Below, in pieces: positions 4,353 to 61,353 of a DNA stretch of 64,000 bases. The DNA is from Podarcis vaucheri. Lineage: Eukaryota. Positions within the stretch are counted from its first letter, which is position 1; the number at the start of each line of letters is the position of its first letter. The DNA is taken from NCBI GenBank assembly GCA_965113315.1, contig OZ220366.1; one strand, written 5' to 3'. Under the pieces are notes generated by a model. It had not been told where the DNA came from. It worked only from the letters and a program-made list of their open reading frames with translations, and searched no databases. The position numbers were made by a program, and so were the translations under genes.

Positions 4353-4641
4353 AAATAAAAAAATTCCTTCCAGTAGCACCTTAAAGACCAACTAAGTTAG
4401 TTCTTGGTATGAGCTTTCGTGTGCATGCACACTTCTTCAGATACACTGAAACAGAAGTTGCCAGATCCTTCTATATAGTGAGAAGGTGGGGAGGGGTATT
4501 ACTCAGAAGGGTGGTGGGAATGGGAGATTGGCAGATATCCAAGAACTAACTTAGTTGGTCTTTAAGGTGCTACTGGAAGGAATTTTTTTATTTTGACTAT
4601 GGCAGACCAACACGGCTACCTATCTGTAACTGGAACCATGG
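4353..4641. mobile_element. Penelope-like element remnant (inverted pseudo-LTR pair)
   Basis: Perfect 57-bp inverted repeat (4351-4407 / 4539-4595), 13-bp target duplication TATGCATTAGGCA (4340-4352, 4642-4654), and a hammerhead motif typical of Penelope pLTRs. Confidence 0.85.
4407..4444 (-). ncRNA. Minimal type I hammerhead ribozyme motif in the Penelope pLTR
   Basis: Minus strand GUAU-CUGAAGA-A-GUGUG-CAUG-CACAC-GAAA-GC-UC-AUAC: stem I, CUGANGA core, stem II, GAAA, palindromic AGCU mini stem III, UH site. Confidence 0.75.
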
Positions 4642-10287: not shown

Positions 10288-10931
10288 GGATATATGAAAC
10301 TCAGATTCTAGTCCATGGTCAGTTGTGGAAATCATACCATATACTGACTGTATCTGAGTTGCTTACAATGAACCAGAAAAGGAGTTTTGGAATTGTGTCT
10401 CAGCACAAATGTCAATCCAGTGTTTAATGGGGATGAAAAAGTAAATCCTGCATTAAGGAATAATTTATTTTTTTTAAACGGCCTCATTTGGAATACTGGC
10501 TATCCTGTCTTAGTAATGAAAATGGTCATGAGATGATACAGTAACATCTCCTATAAGACCAAGCTACATGATCAGGGCTTTTAAATTTAGAAAAAGGGGA
10601 CGTTGCCAAATTTATGTGTTGCAGGTGTATAAAGCCCTAAACAGTTTAGAATTTGTTTATCTGAGAGTCTACTTCTCCCAAATCTTATTGCTTGGATCCT
10701 TAGTTCATAAAGTGGAGTTGTATTGTGGATGTTGTTTAATGTTCATTTAATGGTAACATGGAGCAGAGCTTTTAATTTGGTGACACCTACAGCTGCATGC
10801 CCCTTGGAACAGGATCAACAATTTGTTCTTTGAAGATGGCTCCTTAATATTTCTTTCTAATTCAGTCAGGCACTTTCAGGTTAGCAGTGTTTAATATTGT
10901 TCATGCTGTTTTTACAGGTAGCTTTACTGTA

Positions 10932-11173
10932 CAGTGGTACCTCGGGTTAAGTACTTAATTCATTCTGGAGGTCTGTTCTTAACCTGAAACTGTTCTTAAC
11001 CTGAAGTACCACTTTAGCTAATGGGATCTCCTGCTGCTGCTGCGCCGCCGGAGCACAATTTCTGTTCTCATCCTGAAGCAAAGTTCTTAACCTGAAGCAC
11101 TATTTCTGAGTTAGCAGAATCTGTAACCTGAAGCATATGTAACCTGAAGCATATGTAACCCGAGGTACCACTG
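10932..11173. mobile_element. Tc1/mariner (Tigger-like) MITE
   Basis: TIRs cagtggtacctcgggtta / taacccgaggtaccactg, TA on both sides, internal taacctgaa repeats. Second copy at 62159-62383. Confidence 0.92.
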
Positions 11174-14100
11174 TATTATTATTTGTTTACTGTTATTTAT
11201 TTATACATCACCATGATATTTTGCATGGTGGGTGCCTTATTAATTATTTCAATAAAACCATCAATAAATTTTCAGTGGTTAGCTTTATATACTACATATT
11301 TGGCATAAGATAAGATGGATAAAGTCTCCGGTAGCCCCACATTTTTCTATCACCTATGATTTACAATCCACTGAAAACTTCATTCAGATATGTTGCAATA
11401 TTTGTACAGAATTAGTATACAGCTTCAGTATTTTCGCAAATAGATTTGCAGCATTGTTGATTATGGAAAACTTAACATTAATATCACAGCTGATTGGCAA
11501 ATATTATAATCAAAATATTTTTACTACAGTCATTTCAGTTTTAAAGCTGATGCTGATAATGGCTAATCTGGAATACTTCCAGTTAATGGCTTCTCCAGTG
11601 ACAATAACACCAACTTTGGATATAAAAAAGAAAATAGCTTTAAAGAAGTGAGAATTAGATGGTGGTAGTGCTCTTGTCAGGATCTGCTAAATCCATTTGA
11701 ACTAACAACGAAGAGCATTAGCACAGTTACCTTGTGGTAAACTGATTTGGCACCTCTTTCACTCACAAAAGCATATAGAAGCCGTCTTGAGAAAATATGC
11801 TCTTTCACTTTGACTATGGTTGCTTCCAGATGAAGATTTATTGTGGGATCAGTCTTCCTCATCCATGCAAGATTTCTGCAGTACACAATGTCATCAGCAT
11901 TAAAATTCCAGTCTACATATCTCCCCCATTTAATATGGATTTACCCTTTTTGGAGAGGATCTGATAGTGAAAATTCAAAAGTGAAACCTGTTGCCAGTGA
12001 CCCATTTGTGACATCTCAATGGCTCATTTGCAAATTAAGCTCCCATCTGGAAGCATCCTGTATTATGCTGTCCACTTTTTCTTCTTTAAATATCAGCATG
12101 ATGCATCATGTTGGGTAAGCAGTTTCAAAAAATAGACTTTGTGTTTATTGATTCACAATGTTTTTTGACGGAAACCAATTACAGAAAAGGTGAGCAACAC
12201 CAGACAAAATAAATATGCTATCTCCTCCAGGTACTAACTTCTGTTCCTTGTATCAGTTTGATTGTGTGTCTTGCCCCTGCACACCTATATTTAGATTATT
12301 GAAAACACCCACCCACACACCCCACATACTGATAATAGTATAAAAATACACCACTATCAATTTGCATAGACCCCTTTTCTTCAGTAAATTAGATTAAGAG
12401 CAGCTAATTAAGCAATCCTTTTGATATATATTTTTAATGCTTATCAGGAGTTGTATCTCTGTTGCAAACTGAAACGCCCAAATTCATCTCATCATGTTCT
12501 GATTCACGCATATGTTTCATTAGATCCTCCTTTTTTAATTAGCTTTTGTGAGTTAGTTTCAGTTTTGTTGGACAATGTAGCTTCACTTAAACCAACTAGT
12601 GTATGGAAAATAAGTATAGCACTGAAAGATGGATGGTTAGAATAATGTAAACTTGTAAACCATGTTCAATTGTTCTCCTTTCCTTAGGAAGTATTAATGT
12701 AAACTTGTAGGTTACTGAACCTTCAGGCATTCAAGGCATTCAATATAAGTTAGATTAGTTTCTAACTCAAGCCACTCCTTCACAGCTCGACATAACTCCC
12801 TGTAGATTAAAATAACAGCAAGAACAAAAGAATTAGCATGTCAGAATTCAAGTGGAATAGTCATGCAATGCTAGGGGGTTTAGCACAGCTCCTGTCTTCA
12901 TAGCCTTGCTCTTATGATGCTGCAGTTAACTAAATTATGAAGCATCTGACAGCTGCTCTACTTGATCACATGAATATTCTGTGAAGGTTGACTACTATCA
13001 TGGGCTTGCACGTGGGAGTAAAGACGCTGAGCCATATGCATTGTGCCTCATTCTCTACATGTGCACAGCTAATTATAATCAAATGGGCAGAGTACATTTT
13101 TAAACCCTTTTCTTCACAATTCCATTCCCCACTGATACATCTATCTGCTCAAAGGAAACATATGTAGACCATTCAAATGCTTCAAAGGAGAAAGTCTCAT
13201 AATAGAGTTCTGGAGGGGATTGTGGAATTTAGCAGTATTCTTAGGGTCATCTTCCATGGTGTTCACAACCTGTCAACAGAACGAAGGGAATTTTTTGCTT
13301 CCCCTTAATGAGAACAAAACAAAGATGGTCTCTTTGTGGCTAATCAGTAATGTTTCCTGAGACTAGTATTTGTTTGAATATTTGACCAAAGAAAGGAATG
13401 AGAAGATTTGATATTTCATCACAAGATACAGTTCTGGGTTATCCTATATCCTAGATATCAGGGGGAGAAACCTGGGCCTTCAAGATGATGTTGGACTTCA
13501 ATCTTATTCAACCCCAGTCAGTATGACCAGCATTCAGAGATAATGGGAGTTGTGGTCCAGTAACACCCAGCAGGTCATAGGTTAGATCAGTTCTTCTGTG
13601 TCACTGAAGAGAGCGCTCCAGCTTTGGAGAGGGAAAGTCAAAGTTTGATCATCCCTCATTGAATCCTCTGATGCCCTGGGCAAAGCATGTTAAACACCAG
13701 TGTTGGTAGAACCAAAAATAGGTGTGTGGCTCCATTGTTCATTGAGTCTGGGAGCAGGAACACCATACTAGGATTAGAACTGGATGACTCATTGTCTTGT
13801 TCAGGACACCCTCTTGTGCTCCCTGTAGGAATGCAGTCTCCTACTTCCAGATATTTCACTTGTGTTTCTTTACTCTGTAACTTACCAAAATAAAAAAATA
13901 AAAATCCCTATCCTCTTTTTTAAAAAGTTTCTAAAGTGCTAAGGGAAAGAATGACCTTGTAATAGAATAACTGGCTGGCCCTGAACTAGCACTTTGTACT
14001 TTCCCTGGTTGTGCTGTACATTTTGCAGAGTTTGCACTGAATCTTGCATACAAATGTAACTGCTGTATTCTGCTCTGCTTTGCTAGCACTAAATGGGCTC

Positions 14101-14840: not shown

Positions 14841-17763
14841 TCAGAGCACTCCTGACATATGGTTGTCAAGCCTCTGCTTAAAGACCTCCAAAGTAGGAGA
14901 CTCCACCACACTCCTTGGCAGCAAATTCCACTGTCGAACAGCTCTTACTGTCAGGAAGTTCTTCCTAATGTTTAGGTGGAATCTTCTTTCTTGTAGTTTG
15001 GATCCATTGCTCCGTGTCCGCTTCTCCGGAGCAGCAGAAAACAACCTTTCCCCCTCCTCTATGTGACATCCTTTTATATATTTGAACATGGCTATCATAT
15101 CACCCCTTAACCTCCTCTTCTCCAGGCTAAACATGCCCAGCTCCCTTAGCCGTTCCTCATAAGGCATCGTTTCCAGGCCCTTGACCATTTTGGTTGCCCT
15201 CCTCTGGACACGTTCCAGTTTGTCAGTGTCCTTCTTGAATTGTGGTGCCCAGAACTGGACACAGTACTCCAGGTGTGGTCTGACCAGAGCAGAATACAGT
15301 GGCACTATTACTTCCCTTGATCTAGATGCTATACTCCTATTGATGCAGCCCAGAATTGCATTGGCTTTTTTAGCTGCCGCGTCACACTGTTGGCTCATGT
15401 CAAGTTTGTGGTCAACCAAGACTCCTAGATCCTTTTCACATGTACTGCTCTCAAGCCAGGTGTCACCCATCTTGTATTTGTGCCTCTCATTTTTTTTTGC
15501 CCAAGTGCAGTACTTTACATTTCTCCCTGTTAAAATTCATCTTGTTTGTTTTTGCCCAGTTCTCTAATCTGTCAAGGTCGTTTTGAAGTGTGATCCTGTC
15601 CTCTGGGGTGTTAGCCACCCCTCCCAGTTTGGTGTCATCTGCAAATTTGATCAGGATGCCCTTGAGTCCATCATCCAAGTCGTTGATAAAGATGTTGAAT
15701 AAGACCGGGCCCAAGACAGAACCCTGTGGCACCCCACTAGTCACTCTTCTCCAGGATGAAGAGGAACCATTGATGAGCACCCTTTGGGTTCGGTCAGTCA
15801 GCCAGTTACAAATCCACTGAGTGGTAGCATAGTCAAGACCGCATTTTACCAGCTTCTTTACAAGAATATCATGGGGCACCTTGTCAAATGCCTTGCTGAA
15901 ATCAGGGTAGGCTACATCCACTGCGTTCCCTTCATCTACCAGGCTTGTAATTCTGTCAAAAAACGAGATCAGGTTAGTCTGACATGACTTATTTTTCAGA
16001 AATCCATGCTGACTATTGGTGATCACAGCATTCCTTTCTAGGTGCTCACAGACTGTTTGCTTAATGATCTGCTCCAGAATCTTCCCTGGTATTGATGTCA
16101 GACTGACTGGGCGGTAATTATTTGGGTCCTCTCTTTTCCCCTTTTTGAAAATAGGGACAACATTTGCCCTCCTCCAGTCTGCTGGGACTTCGCCTGTTCT
16201 CCAGGAATTCTCAAAGATGACTGCCAGTGGTTCTGAGATCACATCTGCCAGTTCTTTTAATACTCTTGGATGCAGTTCATCTGGCCCTGGAGACTTGAAT
16301 ACATCTAAACTAGCCAAATATTCTTGTACTATCTCCTTAGTTATTCTGGGCTGTGTTTCCTTTGCTGAATCATTTGCTCCAAATTCTTCAGGTCAGGCAT
16401 TGTTTTCTTTATCGGAGAAGACTGAGGCAAAGAAGGCATTGAGTAGTTCAGCCCTTTCTGTGTCCCCTGTTTGCATTTCACCATCTTCTCCTCTGAGTGA
16501 CCCCATTGTTTCTTTGTTCTTCCTTTTGCTACGAACATACCCATAAAAGCCTTTTTTGTTGCTTTTAACCTCTCTAGCAAGCCTGAGTTCATTCTGTGCT
16601 TTAGCTTTTCTGACTTTGTGTCTACACGTGCTGGCTATTTGTTTGAATTCCTCTTTGGTGGTTTCCCCCCTTTTCCATTTTTTGTACACATCCTTTTTTA
16701 ATCTTAATTCAGTTAAAAGTTCTTTAGATAGCCACCCTGGCTTCTTTAGGCACCTTCCATGTTTCCGTCTCATTGGTATTGCCTGACGTTGTGCTTTTAG
16801 TATCTCCCTCTTAACAAACTCCCAGCCATCATGAACTCCCTTTCCTTTTAGTATTACTGTCCATGGGATCTCACCCAGCACTTCCCTAAGTTTTATGAAG
16901 TCGGCTTTCTTAAAGTCAAGAAATTGAGTCCTAGTATGCTTGGCTGCTCCTTTCCGCTGTATAGTAAACTTCAGAAGAGCATGATCACTCGCGCCTAATG
17001 ATCCTTCCACTTCTACCCCACTAACCAGGTCATCAACATTGGTTAGGACCAGATCTAAAATGGCTGTTCCTCTTGTTGCTTCTCCCACTTTCTGGACAAT
17101 GAAGTTGTCTGCAAGGCCAGTGAGGAATCTGTTTGACCTTATGCTCTTGGCTGAGTTTGACGTCCAACAAATATCTGGGTAATTGAAGTCCCCCATTACT
17201 ACTATCTCCCTTCCTTTTGCATGCTTGGCCATCTGTTCCAGGAAGGCATCATCTATGTCCTCCGTTTGGCTTGGGGATCTATAGTAAACTCCCACAATGA
17301 GGTCTCTGTTATTCTTCTCTCCCTTAATTTTGACCCAAATGCTCTCACTTTGGCTTTGAGGATCTAAATCTTGGATCTCTTCACAGGTATACACATCCCT
17401 GACATATAACGCCACTCCTCCTCCTTTCTTGTCTGGTCTGTTTCTCTGAAATAGATTGTATCCCCCCATTATTACATTCCAATCGTGGGACTTATCCCAC
17501 CAGGTTTCAGTGATGCCTATTATGTCATATTTAGTTTGCTGTACCAAGAGCTCAAGCTCATCTTGTTTATTTCCCATGCTTTGCGCATTAGTGTACAGAC
17601 ATTGAAGTCCATTAATCATTCCCCCGTGTCTCTTATTTAAGGATTTTTTCCTCCCACCACTAGGTCCGCGTGCTGTTTGCTCCATTTGGTCTATGACATT
17701 TGGATGATCATCTTCATTAATTGATAGACTCCTACCTTCAGGAGCACTGTCTCCCTCCCCCAC
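14841..17763 (-). pseudogene. CR1 ORF2: APE endonuclease plus reverse transcriptase, two disruptions
   Basis: EN motifs [37 protein letters not shown] motifs [30 protein letters not shown]. In-frame TGA at 16393-16395 and +1 slip in the 9-nt run 15490-15498. Confidence 0.95.
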
Positions 17764-17768
17764 ATTAG

Positions 17769-18739
17769 TCAGTTTAAAGCCCTCCTGATGAGGTTTCTGA
17801 GATTTTTGGCAAAAACATTTCTCCCAACCGTTGTGAGGTGCAGCCCATCACTTGCCAGAAGTCCATCTTCAAGAAACTGCAGTCCGTGATCTAAGAATCC
17901 AAACCGTTCCTGTTTACACCATTTGCGAAGCCAGCTGTTCACTTCCACTATTTTCCCCTCTCTCCCTGGGCCACGTCGTTCAACTGGGAGGACAGATGAG
18001 ATGACAATTTGTGCATTTAGTTGCTTCAATTTCCTGCCGAGAGCCTCGTAGTCTCTTTTGATCTTCTGGAGGCTATTGCTTGCAGTGTCATTGGTTCCCA
18101 CATGAACCAAGAGGAAGGGGTATTTGTCAGTGGGTTTTATGATTCCTTGCAGTCGTTCAGTTACATCTTGGATCTTAGCCCCGGGGAGACAGCACACTTC
18201 CCGAGACATCTTGTCAGGCCCACAGATCACTGCTTCTGTTCCCCTCAGTAGGGAATCCCCTATCACCACTACACGCCTCCTCTTGGGTTTGGTCGGGGTT
18301 CTTCCGTGAGCTGTCCGTTCCAAGGTCGCCTGCACATTCCCTGAGGACTGACTTTGCTGCTCGTCTTCATATACCTGATCGACTGTAATGAGGGAGAGAT
18401 CCTCAAATGGAGTCTGCTCTTCGTCTTCCATGCTAGGGGAGAGGACCTCAAAGCGATTGTGTATTTCTAAGCAATCAGAGTGAACCCTGGGCCTCCTACT
18501 TCTTTGAGTCACGTTTCTCCATATATCTGGCTCCTGTGTTGGTGAACTAGACTCCTTCTCAGGGGAGTGCCCTGTCTCCTCCTTGGTGGAGACGGTGTGC
18601 TCTGTTGCTTCCAAGAAGAGCTCCAGCTCTCTAATTCTTTGGAGCGTAGCTACACGTTCCTCCAGTTGCTGGACTTTGTCTTTTAAGAGGGCAATCAACA
18701 TGCAATTGCTGCAGGTAAAGCTGCCTGCAACCTTTGGCA
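17769..18739 (-). CDS. CR1 ORF1p, N-terminally truncated: CxxC, coiled coil and SGNH/GDSL esterase domain
   Basis: FTCSNC followed by the heptad [19 protein letters not shown] blocks GDSLL, PGA, HVGTND, DGLHL. Ends RRALN-stop. Confidence 0.9.
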
Positions 18740-20119
18740 ATGCTATCCTTCTGCTTATATAGTCCTGCTCCAGCTCTTGACTATGCTGGAACATAGCTAT
18801 GCCACACCACATATCTATATATAATGTTCTATACACAGGATCTGGAGATTCTAATTGTTCCTTCTCAAAGTCTGGCAATGCACTCTGAGAAAGAATGGAA
18901 GTTCTTCCCAGACTGGTTATAGTCTAATTTTTTCTCATTAAGAAACTAGCAATGACACTGAAATTTAGTGCACTGAAATTCAGTAATATGGAACAAACAA
19001 ATAGCAAATGTATGAATTGCTCTTGCATCCTTACAAACTGAGTTGAGCCCAAACTCTAATGGTGGTCAGATCTTGATAAGAATCAGTTCACCAGGATCTT
19101 CATAGGTCACTGTTCACCCCAACAACCCCTTTCCCTGGTAACAGCAAAAGAAGAGAACACATTAGAGCTATTTCTGTGATGGCTCCATCCCTTCTATCTT
19201 ATCTCTGGTGAGTTGAATGTCGCGACAGCAGAGGCCAGGCATAAGGAGTTGAGGGACACATGATTTTCAGGCTAACTGACATCCGCTATAAGCACTTGAA
19301 TAACCTAATTCCTAGAATCTCTGCCAGCAGCATTCTCCTTGCAGCATTCTCACAAAGCACTCACAAAGAAGCCTCCAGCGGGACTTTCTCATTGCTGCCA
19401 CCAGGAATGTTTTAGACAAAGAGAAGGTTTTAGCAGGATAAGTTTCAGGGTCTTGTGGAAGGAGTTGCTTATAACTCACCATGCTGCCAATTATGGAACT
19501 AAGAGCAGAAAGAAGTTATTTTTTCAATGGGTGTGTGTGGAAACCACCCATTATTGTATAAGAAATAAGTTCTACAGTACTAGCAGAACTCATTCCATCT
19601 GATGGCCTGCAATCTCACAGCTTTCACCTAGGATTGAGATATTTGCTCAAGAATAATAGTAAATGACTAGGTTGCTCACATCAAGGTGTTGAGGGATCCT
19701 CCAAAGATGCCAGTACCTTTCCTCCTTCTTCCTAGGACACAATTATATTTATCTGTACTGATGGGAGCAATACTGCTAAAAGATCTATGTACAAGCAATG
19801 GCAGCCTGAGGAATTTTGCTGCCTGAAACAGAACCCAAATGATACTCTCCACAGCCTTAGGGCTAATGCTCCTGCCTATTCCTGATGATGCTGATGCCTG
19901 AAAGGCCTGTTCATGAAAGGGCTGGCCCTGTGTTCAAGCAGTTTAGTGTTTACCTGCACTGCAGCAAATACTGTCTTTTTAACATGGTAACACACTAGCA
20001 GGGTGATTCATGACATTCATTGACATCAGAGCAGAACTAAGGCTCATAGCATTAAAATGCTCTCACAGCTGGCTCTTGCTGGCTCAACATCTTTGCTTCC
20101 CAGTACTGCCTGAAACAGC

Positions 20120-35736: not shown

Positions 35737-38625
35737 AAAGTGGTAGGGACAAACGATTATGTCACAAGTAGGAAGGCTTGAGAAATTTGAGTTTTGTGAA
35801 TGCCACTTCAGTCTGACCTAATCTGCACTGACCCTTCCACACTGGAATGAATTTATCATTCTGATTTCGCAATACTCTCAGATTTTCAATGCAGTTCCTG
35901 GCTCAAAAAAAATCTACCAGCAGAATGCATTACAAATGCATTTGGTCAAATGTATTTAGAAATACATACACTGAGATACATATCTGGATATGTATTTTGT
36001 GACAAAATACTTATTGCAGTATATATTTTAAAATGTGTCTTGATATGGACTGATCTGTCTGTCTCGTTAATTGTACCTAAATTTATTTGTGAGGAAGGGA
36101 GAACATGGCATCAGTCGGACAGCAGCCTCATGTGTGTGTTTTTTGAGCAGTGCAGAGGTGAGGTGGGCCCTCAGCAGTACTTGGCGAAATCCATGCTGGG
36201 CTTAGGCTGCAGACTACATGAAAGTAGAGCTCAGATGTTGCTTCATCAACAGTCATCCTCAGCCTGAGCCTTAAATAGGAGCTGCCTGTGCATGTCAGCT
36301 GCTAGCTCTGCTTTTGGTGAGAGGATTCTCTTCATTTAATGGGCCCACAGGATATTATGATTTCACCAGGAACTTTGGCTGGAGAGGTACTGCCACAATG
36401 AGTTCCTCTTGCAGAAGTGCTTCTTGTTGGTTTTGCACATCTGTGGCTGGGCCTGAGGGCTTGTTCCTCTCCCATTCCTCTTACTCCCTATACTACTTCA
36501 TCATTTGATGGTGTGTACAGGTTCTAACCAGTACTGGTTTGTCATTCTGCATTTTTGAAAGTATGCTGTTTTAGAACATAGCCCAATATAAAAGTCCCCC
36601 CCCCCGTACCAGTGCTCATTTAGTAGTATTCATGGAAGAGGATTTTTATTTTATTTTAAAAAAGCTAATTTTGGAATTTCTTTTTTTTAAAAAAAATGCA
36701 TTGAGTGCTCATTAAAACAACAGATTAAATCACTTCTCTTCGAGACAGATGTAAAAGACAGGTGCTGTATAATCTGACACAAGCTCTGTAAATATATGTT
36801 TGTTTTGATCATCAGTGCCACTCGCGATCTCAGTTCTAGGATTCTATGGAAGGGAAATTGCTAATTGCACCAAAACTTTGCAGTAATTTGTAGCACCCAT
36901 ATTTGTGTAATGGGTTAGACCAGCTTTTCTTTCGTGCTTCAACACATCACTTAAACTGAAGGCTGTAAGGGGAACTGTAGGTCAAGATAACAATGGGGAC
37001 AGGAAAAGGCACTGGACAATGGAAGGCGGAAAAAAGGTAGGAAATGTCGAAGCACTTGTAAAGGAGACACAGTTTAAAGTACTGGTAGTCACCTGAGTTT
37101 CTTCAGCTAAAAATGTGAGTAGCACACTGAAAGAAGGCCTGGCTGAAATGAAGGATAAAGAGGGAGGCTTTTCACAGTTCACAGGTGTGCAGACAGGAGC
37201 AGGAGAATAGCGGCAAACCCAGCCCTTGACCTCTGCACATTCAGCTGAAAGTTATGAGCCCATATGCATATAGCTCTCTATATGTGTAAAGTTTTCTCCA
37301 TGCTGTCATTTCAGGATTGCATGATAGTATGGGGAATTGTGCATGCATAGGCTCTGCACCAGGATGTGCTATCCTGCCCACTCTCTATAGGCATTCATAT
37401 ATTTTCTTAAAAGGACTAAAGGAACCCATATTATGAGACTGAGGGAGAGGCCTTCCTCCTTTTGGAAGTTAGAGGATGCTTCCTGCACTTGCTAAAGTGC
37501 AAATATTCCATATATCCCAGGCTCGAGGTGGACAGGAGGAGCTGACCTTGCTTGCACAAGCCATTTCTTTTATCTGCTATGCTCATTTTTAACATTTATC
37601 TGGGGGCAAGAGCTGTGAAACTCAGACTGTGACTCTGTACACACTTATCTGAGGAGTAAGCCCATGGAAAACGGCACTTGCTTTTGAGCAGTCATGTACA
37701 AGCTTGCACTGTAAGGGTGCTATTTCATTTTCCTACTTTTGTAAATTAAATGAAAATCATATGGGCCAGAACTCAGATCTGATTTTTGAAATGGTAATGG
37801 CTGTGCTTCATTTTTTTGTAGCTCATTAACAGCATTCAGAAGCAACTCGTTGGGGTGACTAAAAGGTGTTCCTGCTGTCATTTGTGAAAATGCCCCAAGG
37901 ATATTTTACTGGAACATTTTAGAATGATAGGATTGCTAATAATTATTAACAATGCATTAGGTGAAGATGAAGCCTGCAATGCTATACACGTATCCTTAAG
38001 ATTAAGTATCAGTGATTTACTACTAAGTAAATGTGCATAAGACTGAGCTGCAAACTTTGTTTTGTCAGCTCACCTCAACATATGATGGGAATGATGATGG
38101 TGGTGGTGTCTGTGCAAGATGGAAGAAATGTAGACCCAATAAAACAGAAAGTTTTGGAAGGTTGCTCATTTGTTTCCATCTGTCTTCATACTTTCTTGTC
38201 GTTCTGGTGCTGTCTTCTTGTGACTTCATGCTTTCATACAAACACACACACACACATTTCTTTTATTGCTGCTTGATAACTGGAAAGTAGCAGTGTACAC
38301 AGTCAGCCCTCCTGGAGGCAAAGCTTCCTACCAGTTATTGACATGATGCCTGTGTTCACATGATGCTTCTGATTCAATATAAACACTGAACTATGGGGGA
38401 ATTAAAACTATCCTGGTGAGATAATTCCAAAAGAAGGAAAAGTGGCAGGTAATATTTTGGACACTTACTGGGTTGAAAACTCACCACCCACCACCTCAAC
38501 TAAGAAATAGATTACACATGACAAGGATAAAATAAAATACATAATACATGGAGGCAACTTGGTGATCTTAAAAAACTTGGTTGTTCCAAACCATTTTTGA
38601 CCAGCAGATTTCTTATGCTGTTGTG

Positions 38626-39247
38626 TGTCGAGGTCCCCCAAGCAACCCTTAAATAATTCACAATTCACACATAATTTTTGCTTAAGGTTTTTGGCATAAT
38701 TTTGGCCACAACTTTTTTAAAATACATAAATGTGAGTGGTTGCTTAGGCATTGGTTATGACTATCTGTTTCCACGCCCAGGGACAGAACTGACTTCCGGA
38801 TTCCAGCAAAAGCCAGTAAGGGAAAACAATATTGGGGAGAGCATGGAGCCGGGCACCAGACCCTCACCCCCCTGCAGGCTCCCGGGGGCTTGCATGGCCA
38901 TAAACCCTATTCAGGGGTACGGACAAAAGAATGGCAAGCCCCTGGATTCCTTTAATGGATTTCCCTTGCAGCAGCAGCATTGGAGGGGCAGGCACCGCCA
39001 ATCCTTACCCCTCCACCAACCAATTTTTTAACCAATGCCTAACCACAACCTTACAAGTTGTGACAATTTGCTACGCAGTAGGCAAAAACCAAATGGCACC
39101 AGCCAGTCAGCCAAATGGACAAAATTCCTATCAGGCCTCTGCCCCAAAAGCAGATGACCACATGACAGGTATAGCAAGGTCAACGCAATAGCCCTAGATT
39201 AGGGAGAGTGGGCGGTTGATCCGATGCACGCAGCAAAAGAGCCCAGT
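38626..39247 (-). mobile_element. LTR-like structured repeat, copy 1 (promoter end truncated)
   Basis: Collinear shared blocks with copies 2 and 3: taggcattgg, atggcc, cggacaa, gattccttta, aagttgtgac, gtagg, aaaattccta, tgacc. Superfamily unresolved (solo LTR or DIRS/Ngaro terminal repeat). Confidence 0.7.
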
Positions 39248-40965
39248 CAGTGATGCTGCTCGTGCATGCGCAGAAGTGCTAAATCACGCTTCGCATGTGC
39301 ACAGAAGTGTAAACCACTCCGCGCACATGTGCAGACGTGGCACTTTGCCATGTGCCCTTTTTAAAAAACAGAATTCTATCTTGAGGCTTGCAAATGTTCA
39401 AAAAATAATATTTCACAAAATACTTTTCCAGTGTAGAAACAATGCAGTTGGCAACAGTTGGAACAGAGCTACACAGCATGCAGTATAGTGCACAAACACC
39501 TCATCAATGCATGTGGAATTCTGTGCCATGTGTGATTCTGTGATGTTTTATTTCTAAAGGATTTTTTTCTATCAGAACAGAGCCATAAAGCATCATATTT
39601 CTGACCATTGTAAAAAACAGAAGAGGCTTTCAGCTAAATCATTGCTTTTCTCCTGAACAAAATGTCCTAAGCTTCATCCTCTCACAATTTTTGTTACCAG
39701 GATGAAATATTGGCATTTAAATGCTTCATTTGTTCTGTGAACTGCACTAGTAACATGTACTATTTTGACCTTTTCAGAATTTTGTAGTTTAATTGGATGG
39801 CTGTTTTTCACTCATCATCCTCTTAACAACCTCTCTGATGTCCAAGTGGGGAGGTAGCGCTTGACAAATCAAGGTGAACATTATTGAAATGAATACAACA
39901 TAATAAAATATAGATTTCCCACCCACCCTCAATACACCCTCGATTTTTATATTACTAAAGCCCAACCCATTTCTTTATCATTGCCAAATTTACAGTGTAA
40001 GCCTTACATTGCACCCCTTCCGTCCCCACCCCCATGAGCTTGTGGAAAGCAGCTGCAGGGAGGAGAGGGGGAGGGGTTTGAAGAATAAGAATAGGATCTA
40101 TTATGGCAGTTCTCTTAGATGGTGCTATTTGTTGCTGCCGAAATGAGGTAAGAAGACAGCTGTTTATGCAAATAAAATGTCTCGCAAATCCACATGAGAA
40201 GGTGTGCACAATACTTATAAGAAAAGAAATGTTCCCTCATGACCATGCTGCGTCTGTTTCTTGAATAAATCCCACACCCTCCTAAATTCCTATCTGCCAA
40301 CTTGTCTTAATGAATATGGAACTCTCTGAAAAGCCACGGCATAATGAATAAAAAGGCTAAACTTTGCTTTTACTTTGGAAAGAATGCATGACTAATCTAT
40401 ACTAGATCTAGAGCTCTGGTTACTTCAAAGGGCAGGCATTTTTGCTCACAGTAGTAGTGAGTTTGCAGTCTCTCGAAAGTCACAAATGTAATTGGGAGGG
40501 ATAAACTGCCCGGGTTTGAAAAACCTAGGAAGACAAAGCGCAAATCTGAAAATATTTTAAATTAAAAATGTAAGCTTTGCCAGGCAGAGAAGAAACAGCG
40601 GCCCTCCAGAGCTTGTTGGACTGAGACTCCCATCATCCCTGACCATTGGGGATGCTGGCTGAGGATGCTGAGCATCCCAATTGTCAGCGCCATGCTTTCT
40701 CCATCTTATTTGTAGAGATTGGTTGTGTGAACCATGCTAATTTAAAAGTGTTGTCTTTTTACTTTGGCTTCCTTTTCCACTTTGTTTCTCCTTTTTTAAA
40801 ATAAATAAATAAATATCTATTTTATCTGGATATTGTGTGAATGTGTGTTACTGTATTGCGCAAAGTTTCTGGAGCAGAAATTCAGTTTTAATATACTGCA
40901 TAATGCACTAATAGGGCACAGAAATTCCATGTGAATAAAATTGTTGTTTATTCATTATTATTGGA

Positions 40966-41742
40966 TTGCACCCCAAGGCCCCACAAGCCCTTTTCCAGTA
41001 AAATAACTTCAAACGGACGCATAATTTTAGTTTAAGTTTTTCGGCAAAATTTGGCTACAGCTTTATTGATTACAAAACAAATTGTGCGGTATTGGCCTAG
41101 GCATTGGTCAGAGACTATAACTGACTCCAGCCTCTCTGGCTGGCAGTCTGAAAGGGTAAACACCAAACAAGGGAGCAACATCGGTGAAGATCAATGGAAG
41201 CTCACCCTGGGGTTCCTGTGGTCCTGGCATGGCCCTAGTCCCTCAAGCGGACTTCGGACAAGATCCAGGACCCCCAGATTCCTTTACCGGAATACCCTAT
41301 TTCTAGAGGGACAGGTGATGGCCACACCTCCCCTCCCGCACATTTCTATAAACCACCAAACCTTACAAAGTTGTGACGATTGCTAAGGGGGTAGGCGAAA
41401 ACCAAGTGGCTAAGCCAATCTGCCAAATGGAAAAATTCCTACCCAGCCCCTGCTCCAAAGCAGGTGACCCAATCCAAAGCAAGACCAAAGCAGCAGCATC
41501 TAAAATACGGAGGGAGGACGGGTGTTTGGCAGCGCAAAGCAAGTGCCCCTACCCCTGTCACGCTGCCGCATTTATAGGTTCCTGGGATCACGCCCACTCG
41601 CCACAATTGGCCCAAACAGCCAAGCGCGATCCCAGGGCCCAACAGACAAGGCTTGGGCCACTCCTAGCAACAACACACCCTGGGGGGGGGGCTTAAGGGT
41701 CCCGAGTGCAACCAGGACCCTCGATTTAGGAGGATCCCATTT
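40966..41742 (-). mobile_element. LTR-like structured repeat, copy 2 (CCAAT, TATA and AATAAA intact)
   Basis: Same blocks. Minus-strand CCAAT 41606-41610, TATAAA 41571-41576, AATAAA 41062-41067. Right end gaggatcc.attt shared with copy 3. No clear TSD. Confidence 0.75.
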
Positions 41743-42382
41743 GTTGTTTCTTATGATTAACTGGTGAGATTGCATTTAAAAATTATTGTGCAGTGATGAA
41801 AAAGGAAGGGGGTGTCAATATGGCCCACATTTCTCTTAGCAATTTGGACCGCCATATACAAAGTTTGTCATTTTGTGCTTATATAGTTGATATGTGATAG
41901 CTTTTTAACTAATACTGAACTGTTTTTGTTCAACTTAACTGTATATATTTGCCTGGCTAATATATTTGCCTAGACTAATATCTATCTTGCATACAAATTA
42001 TAAGACCTTATAATTAGAAAGAACCTAGATGGACCTGTGGTCTGACTTTGTATAAACCAGCTTCCTACATTCCTAAATATCATTGGATTGACCCCTAGTT
42101 TAAATTAAGAGTGCTTAGAATTTGATTTTGGCTTGCAAACTGGATGTTATAATGTTGCTAGTCCCCACCAACCTTTGAAATTTAGTAACTGTTGTGTAGA
42201 TGTTTAAAAAAATACCAGAGAAGTGTGCAAAGAGTTTCTTGAAATTATATTTGTGGCCAGAAAGGTTTGGGGTTCATTTCACTGAAATTCTCCTGGGGCA
42301 GGAGGTTATCCAACAGTCTCCCGGGAGAAGGGCTCTCCATTAGTAATGACAGTAGCACATGGGCTCTTTATTCAAAAAGATT

Positions 42383-46790: not shown

Positions 46791-47503
46791 GCTCTTACTG
46801 TCTCCTCCTGAAGAAACAAGACTACCAACATTGTTCTGGGGCATGTTTTCAGTGAAAATGTGTAATGTTTCTTACAGTGTTTACTACATTTCTTCCTAGC
46901 ATTGAATTCAAGCTGAAATGGCTATGAAATGGCAGCAATATCAGGACCTCAGCTTTTATCATAATAATTTTCTTAGTCGTTCAGAAATTCCCCCAAAGGC
47001 CTGAAATGAGAGAATCTGTCCATTTGCAGTCTCTGTCACTTTCCCATGCTCCTGCTGACAATTCTATTTTGTTCTGTTTCTGTATTCAACAACTTCAAAA
47101 CTATATATATATATATATATAAAGGTAAAATCTCAGAATTGAATTTAACAGAGCAATTCAAACTTGGCTCCAGCCTGCTAGGGTGGAAGGGGGGCTGGCA
47201 GTATTTCTCTGCTTTTTTATTTTTTCCTTTTTTTCTGTACCAACTCCAGGGTGGCACAGCAGGGGAGCCCAGATCAGGCCCACAGAGAGATGGATTCAGC
47301 AGATCCTTTGGACTCGGCAGATCCTGCCCCAGCTTTATAACACTCAGTTCTGGGGCCTAATGGCAGCTAAAACCAGCAGAAATTCTTCCAGGAGTAGTGT
47401 GCACTCTACCACACTTTTGGCGGGTGCAGTAGAGCCTTCCCTGCTCCCCCCTCCCCTGGTGGAGGGATATTGTGGTTATTCATATTGTGCTTTTGGGAGT
47501 AAT

Positions 47504-48139
47504 AGGCAAATAGAAGGGGAAGAAATGGAGGCAGTGAGAGATTTTACTTTCTTGGGCTCTAGGATCACTGCAGATGGTGACAGCAGCCACCAAATTAAAA
47601 GATGCCTGCTTCTTGGGAGAAAAGCAATGACAAACCTAGACAGCATATTAAAAAGCAGAGACATCACCTTGCCTACAAAGGTCCATATAGTCAAAGCTAT
47701 GGTTTTCCCAGTAGTGATGTATGGAAGTGAGAGCTGGACCATAAAGAAGGCTGATCACCGAAGAATTGATGCTTTTGAATTTTGGTACTAGAGGAGACTC
47801 TTGAGAGTCCTATGGACTGCAAGAAGATCAAGCCTATCCATTCTGAAGGAAATCAGCCCTGAGTGCTCACTGGAAGGACAGATCCTGAAGCTGAGGCTCC
47901 AATACTTTGGTTACCTCATGAGAAGAGAAGACTCCCTGGAAAAGACCCTGATGTTGGGAAAGATGGAGGGCACAAGGAGAAGGAGACAGCAGAGGATGAG
48001 ATCGTTGGACAGTGTTCTTGAAGCTACGAAAATGAGTTGGACCAAGCTGCGGGAGGCAGTGGAAGACAGGAGTGCCTGGTGTGCTCTGGTCCATGGGGAC
48101 ACGAAGAGTTGGACACGACTAAACGACTAAACAATAACA
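47504..48139 (+). mobile_element. BovB-type RTE LINE, 5'-truncated 3' end
   Basis: FTFLGS, VFPVVMYGSESWT, IDAFE, LQYFG.LMRR, SLEKTLMLGK in one frame with a single TAG (47789-47791). Tail gactaaacgactaaacaa. Confidence 0.93.
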
Positions 48140-51040: not shown

Positions 51041-51086
51041 CAGGAGAAGGTTGTACTTCGAAGGTGTAATGCACTGTAGCTTAGCC

Positions 51087-51222
51087 CAGGCTTCCTCAAC
51101 CTCAGCCCTCCAGATATTTTGAGACTACAGTTCCCATCATCCCTGACCACTGGTCCTGCTAGCTAGGGATCATGGGAGTTGTAGGCCAAAAACATCTGGA
51201 GGGCTGAGGTTGAGGAAGCCTG
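51087..51222. mobile_element. Young palindromic hAT MITE
   Basis: Perfect 29-bp TIRs and perfect 8-bp TSD GCTTAGCC (51079-51086, 51223-51230). Degraded relatives near 13460, 14680, 40600, 51425 and 61900. Confidence 0.95.
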
Positions 51223-52779
51223 GCTTAGCCAGCCAGGAACAAGAAGAATTATTCTGGCACATGTCTGCCAGGTAGAAGCCATCATTTCACAACCCTCAGA
51301 GATATGATCTGTGTAGAGTGCCTTTTGGGAGGCGGGAAATACCAACTTCCCATCTGAACAGCTTTTTCTGGCTGGGGAAAATAGAAAGCAACTGTCATCA
51401 CCAGGTTACATCTATCCATCTAAGCCAGTGATGGGTTGCCTGTGGTCCTCCATATGCTATGCAATTACAACTCTCACTATTTCCGGTTTTGGCTAGTCTG
51501 CCTGGGGGCAACTTATGGAATGTAAAGGTTTCTCCATCTCAATTTGATTATTTATCTCCTCAAAAATCAACCTTAATCTTTCAGAGTACCAAACTTACCA
51601 TGCTGTTTCTACAAGTTGTTAAAACAAAGCCCTTTTATCAAACATTTATGCTTCCCAAAAATATATACTTACTAATACAAAGGCAAGGTTGTACGCATGT
51701 ATTATTTTTTATTCCACTTACTGTGAGAAATGTAGCACCATGTTTATTTACAGCATCCATTTTCTTTCCAGTTTTTTTAAAAAAAACTTTATGTTTATTT
51801 CAAAGGGTTCCACTCAAACAGGATATGCAGAGTCCAGTAATAGGATTATTTTTCCTATCAGGTTTATATTAGATTTTCACAGTATGGAGATTTCTACCCT
51901 GCATCATTTTCCTACTGTTAATTTAGTGCAAGTTCATGTTTAAAATTTGCATTGGTAGGCAAGGAAAGGATTGACTCTGATCTGCTACTGCTACCCTAAG
52001 GTGTAAGATAATGCTGTACTCTAGACAAGGGAAATAGCAAGCCCAAAATATATTTCTCAGAACGATATATTTGCTTTCAACTTTCTGAAAACAGGATTTG
52101 AGGAAGATCTACCTTAAGGGCTAAAGTTCTGTCTGCAGATGCCATATTTGATCTCTTGGATTTACTCTTCCTACCTGAAAAAGTTATCAATTATTTCAGA
52201 TGGGAAATTGGCAGAAAAGAGCACAGCACAATTTTGGCAATTGTAGCAGAGGCAATGGGGTCAATTTAATTCACCATTTACATAGCTAAGGTGTCCAGAG
52301 CTATGTGTATTCTGCACTTCCATAATCACCTCATGCAAGCAAGGATCTCCATGTGCAGAAATCAGTATATAACCTCCCCCACCTAGCACTGATTGAAAAG
52401 GGGGAGAATCTCCTCCACTTCCCAAATGGCTGCAAATATATTTTCTGAGAATGCTTTTTTAAAAAAGTTTGTTGTTATATTTTTCTCCCAACTTTCAAGG
52501 AGCTCAGATTGGAGTATATGCCTCCCCCCCCATTTTATCCTCACAACCACCATATTAGATAGATTAATTAGGCTGATAGCTAGCAACAGGCCCAAGTTCA
52601 TCCAAATAGGTCAATGGCCAGAACTGCCCAGTCCTAGCCTAACTACTATACAACACCAATTCGAATACCATACTGACAATGCCAGTAGCTTGTGAAATCT
52701 GAAAGGCACGTGGGTGGCTGAGCATAATTTATAGTGGCCAAGGAGCTAGAACTGAAGGGAGGTGTATGCGTGGCTTTCA

Positions 52780-53420
52780 TTGTACCTGATCCAAAAGTTG
52801 CAAATAGTACAGAATGCAGTGGCCAGACTGCTGACAGGAACAGATTACCGGCAACATGTTTCTCTTCTGCCGAGAGAGCTGCACTGGTTGCTGATTTTCT
52901 GCTTACCCAAGTTCAAGGTTCTTGAGTTAATTCAGAAAGCCCTTAACAAATTGGGCTCAACGTTCCTTGAAGACTACCTGATACCTTATAGTCCACCTTG
53001 TTCACCGATAAGGCCCTTTTGATGGTTTCCATGTGTCTGAGGTTCAGTTGCCCATCACTAGAAGCCAAGTCATTAGCATGGCAGGCCCTGCCTTGTGGAA
53101 ACCATCTCTATAGAAGTTCAGCAGGAACCATCCTTACCTTCTTTCAGGTGGCTTCTGAAAGCTGTATTCTAGTGGTACTTCTACTTACGAATGCAATCCG
53201 TTTTGGGGTGCCGTTTGCACCCCAAAAAGCCCGAAAGTAAAGCGCCGTTACTGCGTGTGCACGAAGCACCATAGAGCACTTCTGCGCATATGCGAAGCAC
53301 ACAGATTGTTTCTGTGCATGCACAAAGCATGCAGATTGCCACATACGTAACCCAAAAAACCGCAACGCGAAGCAAACGTAACACAAGGTATGACTGTATT
53401 TAGAAAGGCCTTCACAATAC
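52780..53420 (+). mobile_element. Older L2 3' fragment, split by a MITE
   Basis: KLQIVQNAVARLLTG, LHWL, FKVL.LI.KAL. The 3' UTR-like ttagaaaggccttc resumes after the insert. Confidence 0.75.
53170..53396. mobile_element. Tigger-like MITE inside L2
   Basis: Termini agtggtact / ggtatgactg followed by TA. CpG-rich interior with ttctgcgcat repeats. Confidence 0.7.
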
Positions 53421-55496: not shown

Positions 55497-56343
55497 ACCT
55501 GCCCCTATTCAAATACCCAAACCACGGCACTCCCCGCTTTGCTTTTGTGCTTCAAGAACTGCAACCACCCCCAAAAATGAAGACACAGTGACACAGGGTT
55601 TTTAGTTTAAGTTATTGGGCAAAATTTAGCTCACAACTTTAATGAATACAGAATGTGAGTGGTATTGGCTTAGGCATTGGTATCATCCAAACTATATCAG
55701 ACTCCCATCCACATCACGGGGAATCTGATAAAAGGGTGAATCACCACCAGAGGGAGCCCCGCCGATGCGGACCAACTCAAGCTCACCCCCGGTGCCCCTG
55801 TGGGGTCCTGGTATGGCCCTAGCCCCTACTGCTGGGTTTCGGACAAGACCCAGGTCAACCCCTGATTCCTTTAATGAAATACCCTTGAGCTTGGAGTGAC
55901 AGGTGATGGCCGCATCTCACCTCCCCACACATTGCTGATCCAATGCCTAACAGCAAATCTTACAAAGTTGTGACAATTGCTGTGCAGTAGGTGAAAAGCA
56001 AATGGCTCTGCCAATCTGCCAGATGGAAAAATTCCTACCAGGCCCCCATTGCAAAACAGGTGACCAACAACATCCATAGCAAGGCTAACACACCAGATAA
56101 AAGGGGCGGGCGGGCGGGCAGGTGATCCGCTGCGCAAAGGCAAAGAAGTCCAGCAAATTTCGCACAGGGATTAAATAATGTTTCGTGGCCACCCTCCAAG
56201 CCAAGCCATTGACTTTAGGGAACAAGGGACCATGAAACAACCAACCAGAGTGGAGCAGGGCATAGCCCTGCCCACACCAGGAGGTGGGAGATGCCTGGGG
56301 GCCCGAGCACAACGCGTACCCTCCTTGAAGAGGATCCGATTTT
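55497..56343 (-). mobile_element. LTR-like structured repeat, copy 3
   Basis: Same collinear blocks, minus-strand ATTAAA at 55638-55643, right end gaggatccgattt. No clear TSD. Confidence 0.75.
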
Positions 56344-57469
56344 CTAAATTCTGCACAGAATGTAGTTTACAGCACCTTTTAATACCCCCTCTTTCTACAT
56401 TACAGATGTAGGTGTATATATTAGGACACCATGAAGCATACTACAAAAACCTCTTTGTGTCTTTCAGTGTAGTGTCTTTTAGTGATTCTCATGTACGCTC
56501 TCAAATATTGCTAAATCATTACACTGAAACAAAAACCTGTACATGGCCATAATTTACAATCATATCAGGATTGCTGTTTTGCATACAAGCTCACTGGCAA
56601 TGCAAAGTGGCAGAAAGATGCAAATTAACTATAGAAACAGAAGCTACTTGGGAAACTGCACATGTACCAGCTTATTGGAATTATTCTTTAAAATTGCCAT
56701 AGTTAAAATGGATTGCAAGATTACTAGGCCAGAGTGAGCCTGAGGAGCAAAAAAGAAAATGAACATGGAAATTTGAGTCCTCTTGACTCACATGACAGGT
56801 GTTGCTTGGCCATGTTTTTACACTGCCCCCCTCCAAGTCTCATGTCTCCTCCCAGAACTGATGTTACCAAATTGCTTTGGTAGGGTTATAGCAATCTAAT
56901 TCCATCATGTTTCAGTTCCACAGGTCATTTCTGTCCCATCTGATGTGGTTTTGAAAGAACACAAGAGAAGTCCTCATTTAAATTGTATGCATTTTGTACA
57001 TATTTATTTACATACATTATTTCCTTTTTATTTAAACTATGCATTTCTCAATGCTTTCCGTGCATTTCTTTCCTGTAGAGTGTGCATGTTTATGCATAAT
57101 ATGTATGTTTGTGTATTTTCTGTGCAGTGAAACTGCATCACAAAATTGAGGGAATAATGCAGGCTTGCTGGGAGTTGTGTTTCCATGTGCCAACAAGTCC
57201 AGGGGTATCAGATTCCATCAGTTCACTGCAAAAAGTGGATGTAACTAATTCTTCCCCATCTCTATTATGGGGGGTGGGTGGAGAACCTCTAGACTGCAGG
57301 CCTAATTAGGGCACTCCATTCGGCTCGCAAGGCACATTTGGACAAGCCACGCCTACCTTCCCTACAGCTGCCATCATATATGACATCCTATACAAGGTGT
57401 TGGGTAGGTAAAACAAATTCATTAAAAACAAGTCTGCCAGTGTCTTGAACAGAACGGTGAGTACTGCTT

Positions 57470-60796: not shown

Positions 60797-61353
60797 TGTT
60801 GTCTTTGTCCATGGAGTTTTCTTGGCAGGGATACTGGACTGACTTGCCGGTTCCTCCTCCAGGTGGATCATGTTTGGTCTAAACTCTCCACTATGACCTG
60901 TCCATCTTGGGAGGCCCTGCCTAGCTTCTCTGAGTTATTCAAGCCCCTTCAGACCATAAAGAAGGCTGATCGCTGAAGAATTGATGCTTTTGAATTATGG
61001 TGCTGGAGGAGACTCTTGAGAGTCCCATGGACTGCAAGAAGATCAAACCTCTCCATTCTGAAGGAAATAAGCCCCGAGTGCTCACTGGAAGGACAGATCG
61101 TAAAGCTGAGGCTCCAATACTTTGGCCACCTCATGAGAAGAGAAGACTCCCTGGAAAAGACCCTGATGTTGGGAAAGATGGAGGGCAGAAAGAGAAGGGG
61201 CTGACAGAGGATGAGATGGTTGGATAGTGTGCTCGAAGCTACCAACATGAGTTTGACCAAACTGCAGGAAGCAGTGGAAGACAGGAGTGCCTGGTGTGCT
61301 CTGGTCCATGGGGTCACGAAGAGTCAGACACGACTAAACGACTAAACAACAAC
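60797..61353 (+). mobile_element. BovB-type RTE 3' end joined to a probable inverted 5'-region fragment
   Basis: 60952-61353 matches 47737-48139 and ends in (CAA)n. 60797-60950 resembles antisense BovB 5' sequence as recalled. Flanks atactccttatc / atactctttgtc match 10/12. Confidence 0.85.

Follow-up and report, generated by a model that had tools for sequence, protein, structure and literature searches.

The window, that is, the whole 64-kb stretch of DNA that was analysed, is vertebrate-type genomic DNA with a G+C content of about 40% and abundant interspersed repeats; presumed SINE and MITE motifs would point to a squamate reptile as the host. In a BLAST search within the window, we found three copies of one repeat, all oriented alike (copy 1, 38616-39246; copy 2, 41001-41742; copy 3, 55540-56342), with pairwise identities of 64-68%; a fourth copy was not found in these 64 kb. 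The repeat is about 810-830 bp long and presents the anatomy of a solo LTR on the minus strand (Table 1). The minus-strand sequences of copies 2 and 3 start with TGC in the same register (41774 and 56374) and end in CA (40967 and 55546, respectively), and copy 1 has a CA end at the homologous 3' position. The TATA-like box of copies 2 and 3 is followed by about 530 conserved nt, the hexamer, an A-rich tract, a GU-rich tract and the CA end. Copy 1 has neither an upstream TATA nor a canonical distal hexamer; no alignment with the other two copies was obtained on its U3 side, and the three-way homology begins near the predicted start site. The place of the U3 side of copy 1 is taken by 39253-39361, a stretch with repeated GCGCATG-like motifs which weakly resembles 53224-53330 (BLAST, E 0.005), in a MITE-like element at about 53168-53400.

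Table 1. Features of the repeat family and of the predicted RNA domain. Positions are those of the window; the arms, hairpins and signals are those of copy 3.
Feature	Position	Strand	Basis or remark
Copy 3, candidate solo LTR, 829 bp, TG...CA ends	55546..56374	-	homology to copies 1 and 2
Copy 2, about 808 bp	40967..41774	-	homology
Copy 1, homologous part	38622..39246	-	homology
TATA-like TATTTAA, copy 3; promoter role inferred	56171..56177	-	aligns with TATAAAT at 41576, copy 2
Hairpin H0, immediately 5' of the ENE-like element	56041..56065	-	hand-registered
ENE-like hairpin	55986..56039	-	lower stem, U5/U4 internal loop, 3-bp and 4-bp upper stems
P1 outer stem, 5' arm	55964..55974	-	
P1b middle helix, 5' arm	55952..55959	-	
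P2 inner stem, 5' arm; missing in copy 2	55940..55950	-	
Looped-out interior, multibranch: HA, P3 (55886-55881/55737-55732), HC, HD, HE, HF	55681..55939	-	
P2 inner stem, 3' arm	55670..55680	-	
P1b, 3' arm	55661..55669	-	
Hexamer ATTAAA, copy 3; last 3 bases within P1	55638..55643	-	
P1 outer stem, 3' arm	55629..55640	-	
Hexamer-to-cut segment, including helix B 3' arm	55616..55630	-	predicted cleavage at CA near 55617
GU/U-rich downstream element, U5-like	55573..55595	-	sequence

The ends of the copies were also examined for traces of insertion. A target site duplication is supported in one of the three copies: the flanks of copy 3 hold a 5-bp match at 4/5, the sole candidate in the scan of its ends. 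At the homologous ends of copy 2 the flanks match at 2/5, and the scan of copy 1 gave 19 candidates, which is the chance level. A PBS-like TGG is absent after the 3' end of copy 3, and neither internal genes nor a PBS flanking any copy were found in the window. The search of Pfam with the 188 stop-to-stop ORFs of at least 68 aa in the window gave 0 retroviral or Gypsy matches, with neither gag, pol nor integrase in the vicinity of the copies and no family in the ORFs overlapping copy 3. Rfam gave 0 hits at the gathering threshold in the whole window; by E-value, the best matches of the three copies (E 0.24 and 0.069) were far below the cut-off. The TG...CA ends and, in copies 2 and 3, the order TATA-like box, hexamer and GT-rich stretch are shared with retroviral and animal Metaviridae LTRs, for which PMC3601003 gives TG...CA, a TATA-like box, AATAAA and a GT-rich stretch. 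Compared with a generic LTR, the termini match the TGT...ACA consensus poorly and the R-like region, of a putative 530 nt or so, is long; in long R regions, the same source ties the residual conservation to stem-loops. On the basis of these sequence features, we consider it likely that the three copies are solo LTRs of one retroelement family, and they are probably old and decayed. The possibility that copies 1 and 2 were the two ends of one provirus was ruled out, as they are 64% identical, and so was that of the stems being the terminal inverted repeats of a MITE, as the homology extends well past both of them. The observed/expected CpG ratio is 0.34-0.42 in the three copies and 0.21 in the window, which suggests that CpG decay in the copies is incomplete.

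Other elements were also observed in the window. The only Pfam hits above the cut-off came from a near-complete LINE at 14841-18923 (minus strand), with a GDSL-esterase ORF1 and with endonuclease and RT domains, whose ORF2 is split over three frames; we take its organisation to be of the CR1 type. MITE-like elements with long terminal inverted repeats are located at 4342-4604, 10930-11175 and 51086-51223. In addition, 47129-48036 and 60952-61251 contain two 300-nt copies that are 91% identical, and the ORF end in this pair, without a Pfam hit, is presumably like an RTE/BovB LINE 3' fragment.

The original prediction described two nested long-range stems that loop out about 300 nt. In copy 3 both were found exactly as described, the outer one (P1) with 10 bp (55631-55640/55964-55973) and the inner one (P2) with 11 bp (55670-55680/55940-55950), and so were the outer stem of 8 bp (38707-38714/39055-39062) and the inner stem of 14 bp (38744-38757/39029-39042) of copy 1. 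Copy 2 has indeed lost the 5' arm of its inner stem. Its outer pair, said to be kept, is formed on the plus strand only, by means of two G-U pairs, whereas on the minus strand 9 of the 11 pairs are canonical and the mismatches are C.A and A.C; since the minus strand is the one required by the model, this part of the prediction needs correction. Between P1 and P2 there is a third long-range helix, P1b, which had been missed, as had the conserved multibranch interior. P1 (10-11 bp), P1b (6-8 bp) and P2 (11-14 bp) constitute a long interrupted helix, and the stems close a multibranch RNA domain of about 345 nt. P1b presents 6/6 pairs in copy 1, where it is shorter on both arms, and 8/8 in copy 2, and this shortening on both arms is the sole covariation-like sign in the closing helix.

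A single inverted repeat of this kind is nothing unusual: the 64-kb window holds 24 perfect ones of at least 10 bp with a loop of 200-400 nt, and when the copy-3 region was shuffled 5000 times, one repeat of at least 10 bp with a loop of at least 200 nt appeared in 370 of the shuffles. A nested pair of stems like that of copy 3 was obtained in 1 of 5000 shuffles, and a 14-bp stem like that of copy 1 in 1 of 5000 as well; among 205 real 580-nt tiles outside the copies, two had a nested pair of at least 10 bp. At the length of the outer stem of copy 1 (at least 8 bp), nested pairs are frequent (324 of 5000 shuffles and 21 of 205 tiles), and for this reason the support from this copy rests on its 14-bp stem. 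It should be noted that the copies descend from a common ancestor and are therefore not independent draws.

Alignment folding, combined with hand registering, gave from 5' to 3' the hairpin H0, the ENE-like hairpin, a linker of 11-12 nt, the interrupted helix and the multibranch interior. The consensus fold of the minus strand reached -94.8 versus -57.1 +/- 6.1 in the null (z -6.2, 0 of 69 simulated triplets), and that of the plus strand -77.2 versus -48.1 (z -4.5, 0 of 79); the null triplets had the same identity pattern, gaps and dinucleotide content. For the interior alone, the alifold energy on the minus strand was -67.3 against a null of -29.9 +/- 4.6 (z -8.1, 0/200), and the plus strand gave a z of -4.9. 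The fraction of pairs predicted in one copy and kept in the others was 0.72 versus 0.65 in the null for the minus strand (0/69), and the difference from the null was less clear for the plus strand (5/79). When the alignment was folded up to the predicted cut, P1 had a p of 0.62-0.92 and the ENE-like helices of 0.87-0.97; with U5 included, P1 was lost. In whole-region folding of the single copies, the energy z was -2.20 for copy 1, and the values of -1.24 and -0.48 for copies 2 and 3 were not exceptional. We conclude that the structure is real and probably belongs to the RNA level, in a candidate LTR family.

In the hand registers, 299 of 320 cells are canonical (72 of 76 in the long-range helices), and 13 of 113 pairs changed on both sides; the registers were selected for pairing and are therefore biased in favour of the model. 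All 13 changes fall among the 70 pairs that belong neither to the long-range helices nor to the ENE-like ones (for example, 3/9 in HD_low and 2/7 in HF), and no compensatory change was observed in the 30 long-range pairs or in the 13 ENE-like pairs, three copies giving low power. With automatic alignments, changes on both sides were not above the null (11/100; 19/69 and 8/69; 137/200), and the excess of G-U over A-C (14 vs 6 columns, p 0.058) was not significant. Regarding sequence identity between copies 1 and 3, it is 42/45 positions in the stem arms and 136/259 in the interior (112/259 three-way). Between these two copies, 15/17 positions are also identical on the 3' side of the P1/P1b loop, which is unpaired; since this side is as conserved as the arms, sequence conservation does not single out pairing. 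In single-copy folding, P1 had a probability of 0.89-0.97 in copy 1, where P2 is also supported, 0.0 in copy 2 in 4/4 contexts, and 0.0 in copy 3 in 3/4 contexts, with 0.81 for the domain alone; forcing the model fold costs 6-31 kcal/mol. These results are compatible with decay after insertion, and these copies cannot prove the fold.

In the ENE-like hairpin, 37 of 39 cells are canonical, 10 of 13 pairs are invariant and 42 of 54 positions are identical across the three copies; its alignment fold has a z of -2.9 (4/500). The neighbouring H0 has 10/10 canonical pairs in 3/3 copies, two of them changed on both sides in the hand registers, and an alifold p of 0.99-1.0. A descriptor of the ENE, composed after the element had been seen, matched the three copies and two other sites when both strands of the window were scanned, and it matched 71, 130 and 76 of 2000 shuffles (3.6-6.5%). 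The two sites outside the repeat (4819-4749 and 44452-44418, both on the minus strand) are probably due to chance. The single-copy probability of the lower stem was 0.0-0.17, 0.27-0.83 and 0.0-0.01 in copies 1, 2 and 3, respectively.

The outline of the hairpin corresponds to that of an ENE as given in PMC7583470, and a triplex with poly(A) would be predicted from it. The same source reports ENEs in LTR elements, including stickleback retroviruses. On the upper side, G-C pairs lie directly beside the U tract, with one mismatch in copy 3; on the lower side, a 2x2 loop intervenes between the tract and the G-C pairs. PMC12501189 describes the Evade RNA as stabilised by an ENE in which the G-C pairs adjoining the U tract are essential, and interrupted A-minor stems are known in the lower domain of double ENEs (PMC7583470). 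Compared with the ENEs of KSHV PAN, Arabidopsis Evade and the stickleback retroviruses, the element described here differs in its U5/U4 loop, in the 2x2 loop before the lower G-C pairs and in its position, as 348-385 nt, among them a large closed domain, separate it from the predicted cut. The outer stem had been proposed to start about 13 nt after the U-rich loop; this agrees with the linker if the count begins at the end of the hairpin, whereas from the U tract, which ends at 55994, the distance is about 20 nt. This linker is paired in copy 1 with the predicted 5' end of R (39237-39228/39076-39067, minus strand; 10 bp, p 0.92), and the pairing is weaker in the other copies.

The overlap between the hexamer and the outer stem is real in copies 2 and 3, with only the last three of the six bases paired, and it does not apply to copy 1. 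The hexamer of copy 2 is AATAAA (41067-41062, minus strand); at this position copy 1 has AAAAAA and no A[AT]TAAA. With P1/P1b formed (state A), the first two hexamer bases are unpaired with 0.74-0.92 in copies 1 and 3, and the last two or three are paired. The cut site was placed from hexamer spacing alone, about 20 nt past the hexamer; from this distal hexamer, 3' of the domain, it is about 43 nt to the GU-rich tract. Just beyond the predicted cut there is an A-rich tract (55599-55616, minus strand; 13/18 positions identical in all copies), which, should the 3' end be located further downstream, could act as a genomic third strand. In the interior, the loop of HC contains ATTAAA at 55875-55870 (minus strand) in copy 3 and at 38956 in copy 1, and GGTAAA in copy 2; it is a candidate for a second hexamer-like or protein-binding loop. 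Inside hairpin HE, all three copies present a donor-like G|GTGAG (55786, minus strand; 41205; 38867) with 6-7/9 consensus matches.

We tentatively favour the reading that these are decayed solo LTRs in which the long closing helix positions the poly(A) tail at the ENE-like hairpin. In the active element, the minus-strand RNA would fold in the cell as the ENE-like hairpin followed by the multibranch domain of about 345 nt, with P1, P1b and P2 acting as one long interrupted helix that closes it. Because the closing helix ends at the hexamer, the start of the new poly(A) tail would be tethered to the U-rich loop by about 23 nt: 11-12 nt separate the predicted cut from the base of P1 and another 11-12 nt lie between P1 and the hairpin on the other side, which reduces the 348-385 nt of linear distance to about 23 nt in the fold. 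The tail would then bind the U-rich loop as a triple helix, and the RNA of the element would be deadenylated more slowly. The original prediction that the fold positions the tail at the ENE is plausible as a prediction, in view of the shared minus-strand fold and of this geometry, although such closeness of the ends would be a generic outcome of any closed RNA domain. It had also claimed that the fold gates 3'-end formation. The outer stem does overlap the hexamer, but the argument is weak because only two or three terminal A-U pairs touch it and P1 is unstable in two of the three single-copy folds. Gating of cleavage would be a secondary effect at most, and it seems unlikely that cleavage control and tail protection form a single RNA device.

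The main rival explanation is that the interior is a functional protein-binding module, for export, packaging or dimerisation, with the long-range stems as no more than its base, and that the nearness of tail and hairpin is a by-product; it is compatible with tail positioning, and we consider it possible, if somewhat unlikely. Rex/Rec response elements and the CTE are analogues of such a module, and we know of no Rex-like gene for this element. The strongest structural signal sits in the interior, which also holds or adjoins all the hand-registered pairs changed on both sides, none of these being in the long-range or ENE-like helices; in copy 2, which is without the 5' arm of P2, the interior still folds with high probability, and any closed domain brings its flanks together. 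Left unexplained are a closing helix that ends exactly at the hexamer and an ENE-like hairpin that is more conserved than the interior (42/54 vs 112/259), and no Rfam family matches the module. That the stems instead go back to an inverted duplication, as a DNA-level relic preserved for its transcription-factor sites and with no RNA role, is very unlikely in our opinion. CCAAT/ATTGG is present in both arms of P2, which we take to be two inverted CCAAT boxes, with presumed kappaB-like and CCAAT motifs in the ENE-like hairpin; in addition, the arms are invariant rather than covarying, and the plus strand also beats its own null. This reading is made less likely by the strand asymmetry, since the minus strand folds clearly better and has G-U pairs in H0, HE and HF. 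Furthermore, the interior hairpins keep a common fold in spite of their low three-way identity, and in copies 2 and 3 the aligned TATA-like boxes are upstream of the region.

Another alternative is a two-state switch that gates the use of the poly(A) site differently at the 5' and 3' LTR, which we regard as quite unlikely. The 5' linker segment would pair either as P1/P1b, with the hexamer partly buried (state A), or with the segment between hexamer and cut site as helix B, with P1 open (state B); a variant supposes that the fold sets a GUAAG resembling a splice donor opposite the hexamer, for a suppression by U1 like that of foamy viruses. Helix B (55963-55952/55630-55619, minus strand), which had been missed by the original prediction, competes with P1 and P1b and is mutually exclusive with them. 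It has 12/12 pairs in copy 2 and 11/12 in copy 3, and with U5 and default parameters its alignment p is 0.79, falling below 0.4 under RIBOSUM scoring. In copy 1 it is broken, with a duplex of -5.8 that 67% of random 40-mers match (5% for copy 3). In copies 1, 2 and 3 the difference G(A)-G(B) amounts to -14.9, +4.5 and -6.1 kcal/mol, respectively; the addition of U5 shifts it by less than 3 kcal/mol, so no copy flips, and state B exposes the hexamer only modestly. In 3/3 copies, the P1/P1b junction carries a GTAAG opposite the hexamer, but this donor scores 5-6/9 and every copy holds 4-7 sites that score at least 6. There are precedents for both versions: HIV-1 hides its AAUAAA in a hairpin (PMC2645353), and foamy viruses use a donor in R in a distance- and fold-dependent manner (PMC3694450). 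A bridging of the HTLV-1 type, in which the fold would join the hexamer in the HC loop, about 255 nt upstream, with the predicted cut, we hold to be hardly conceivable. The ATTAAA of this loop is found in copies 3 and 1 (55875 and 38956), being in the latter the sole minus-strand A[AT]TAAA; nevertheless, copy 2 has GGTAAA there and a perfect AATAAA distally, with its GU-rich tract at normal spacing.

Several known systems resemble parts of this arrangement. As in the polyA hairpin of HIV-1, a stem overlaps the hexamer in a repeat found at both ends (PMC2645353), but the HIV-1 structure is a local hairpin in a 97-nt R, whereas here a long-range closure of about 345 nt touches two or three hexamer bases. 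In HTLV-1, an RNA fold bridges the U3 hexamer across the 228-nt R, and with its Rex response element the present domain shares a large fold in a long R-like region that shortens a distance at the 3' end (PMC3694450). The original prediction had invoked this analogy, which fails because here the hexamer and the predicted cut are adjacent and contiguous with the GU-rich tract: HTLV-1 bridges a hexamer to a distant cut, while here the hairpin would be bridged to the tail. A donor-like sequence upstream of the hexamer within R is also shared with foamy viruses (PMC3694450), although the donor-like sites observed here are weak and indistinguishable from the background.

ENEs in LTR elements, poly(A) hairpins and large folds of the R region are each already known. 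In the literature searched, which did not cover Tycowski et al. 2016 or repeat libraries, we found no description of this combination or of this family; nor was an example of an amniote LTR with an ENE found in that literature, Tycowski et al. 2016 again apart. In PMC7583470, ENEs are documented mainly in plant, fungal and viral RNAs, and among vertebrate transposable elements in one fish retrovirus. If our reading is true, a structured amniote LTR bearing an ENE would extend the known range of these elements. It would also mean that an ENE may sit hundreds of bases from the tail where a fold closes the gap, and such distant ENEs would affect the design of ENE searches. Solo LTRs are usually numerous, and copies of this family could influence the host transcripts that end in them. 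If the interior should turn out to be an export or packaging element instead, it would still be an undescribed conserved RNA domain.
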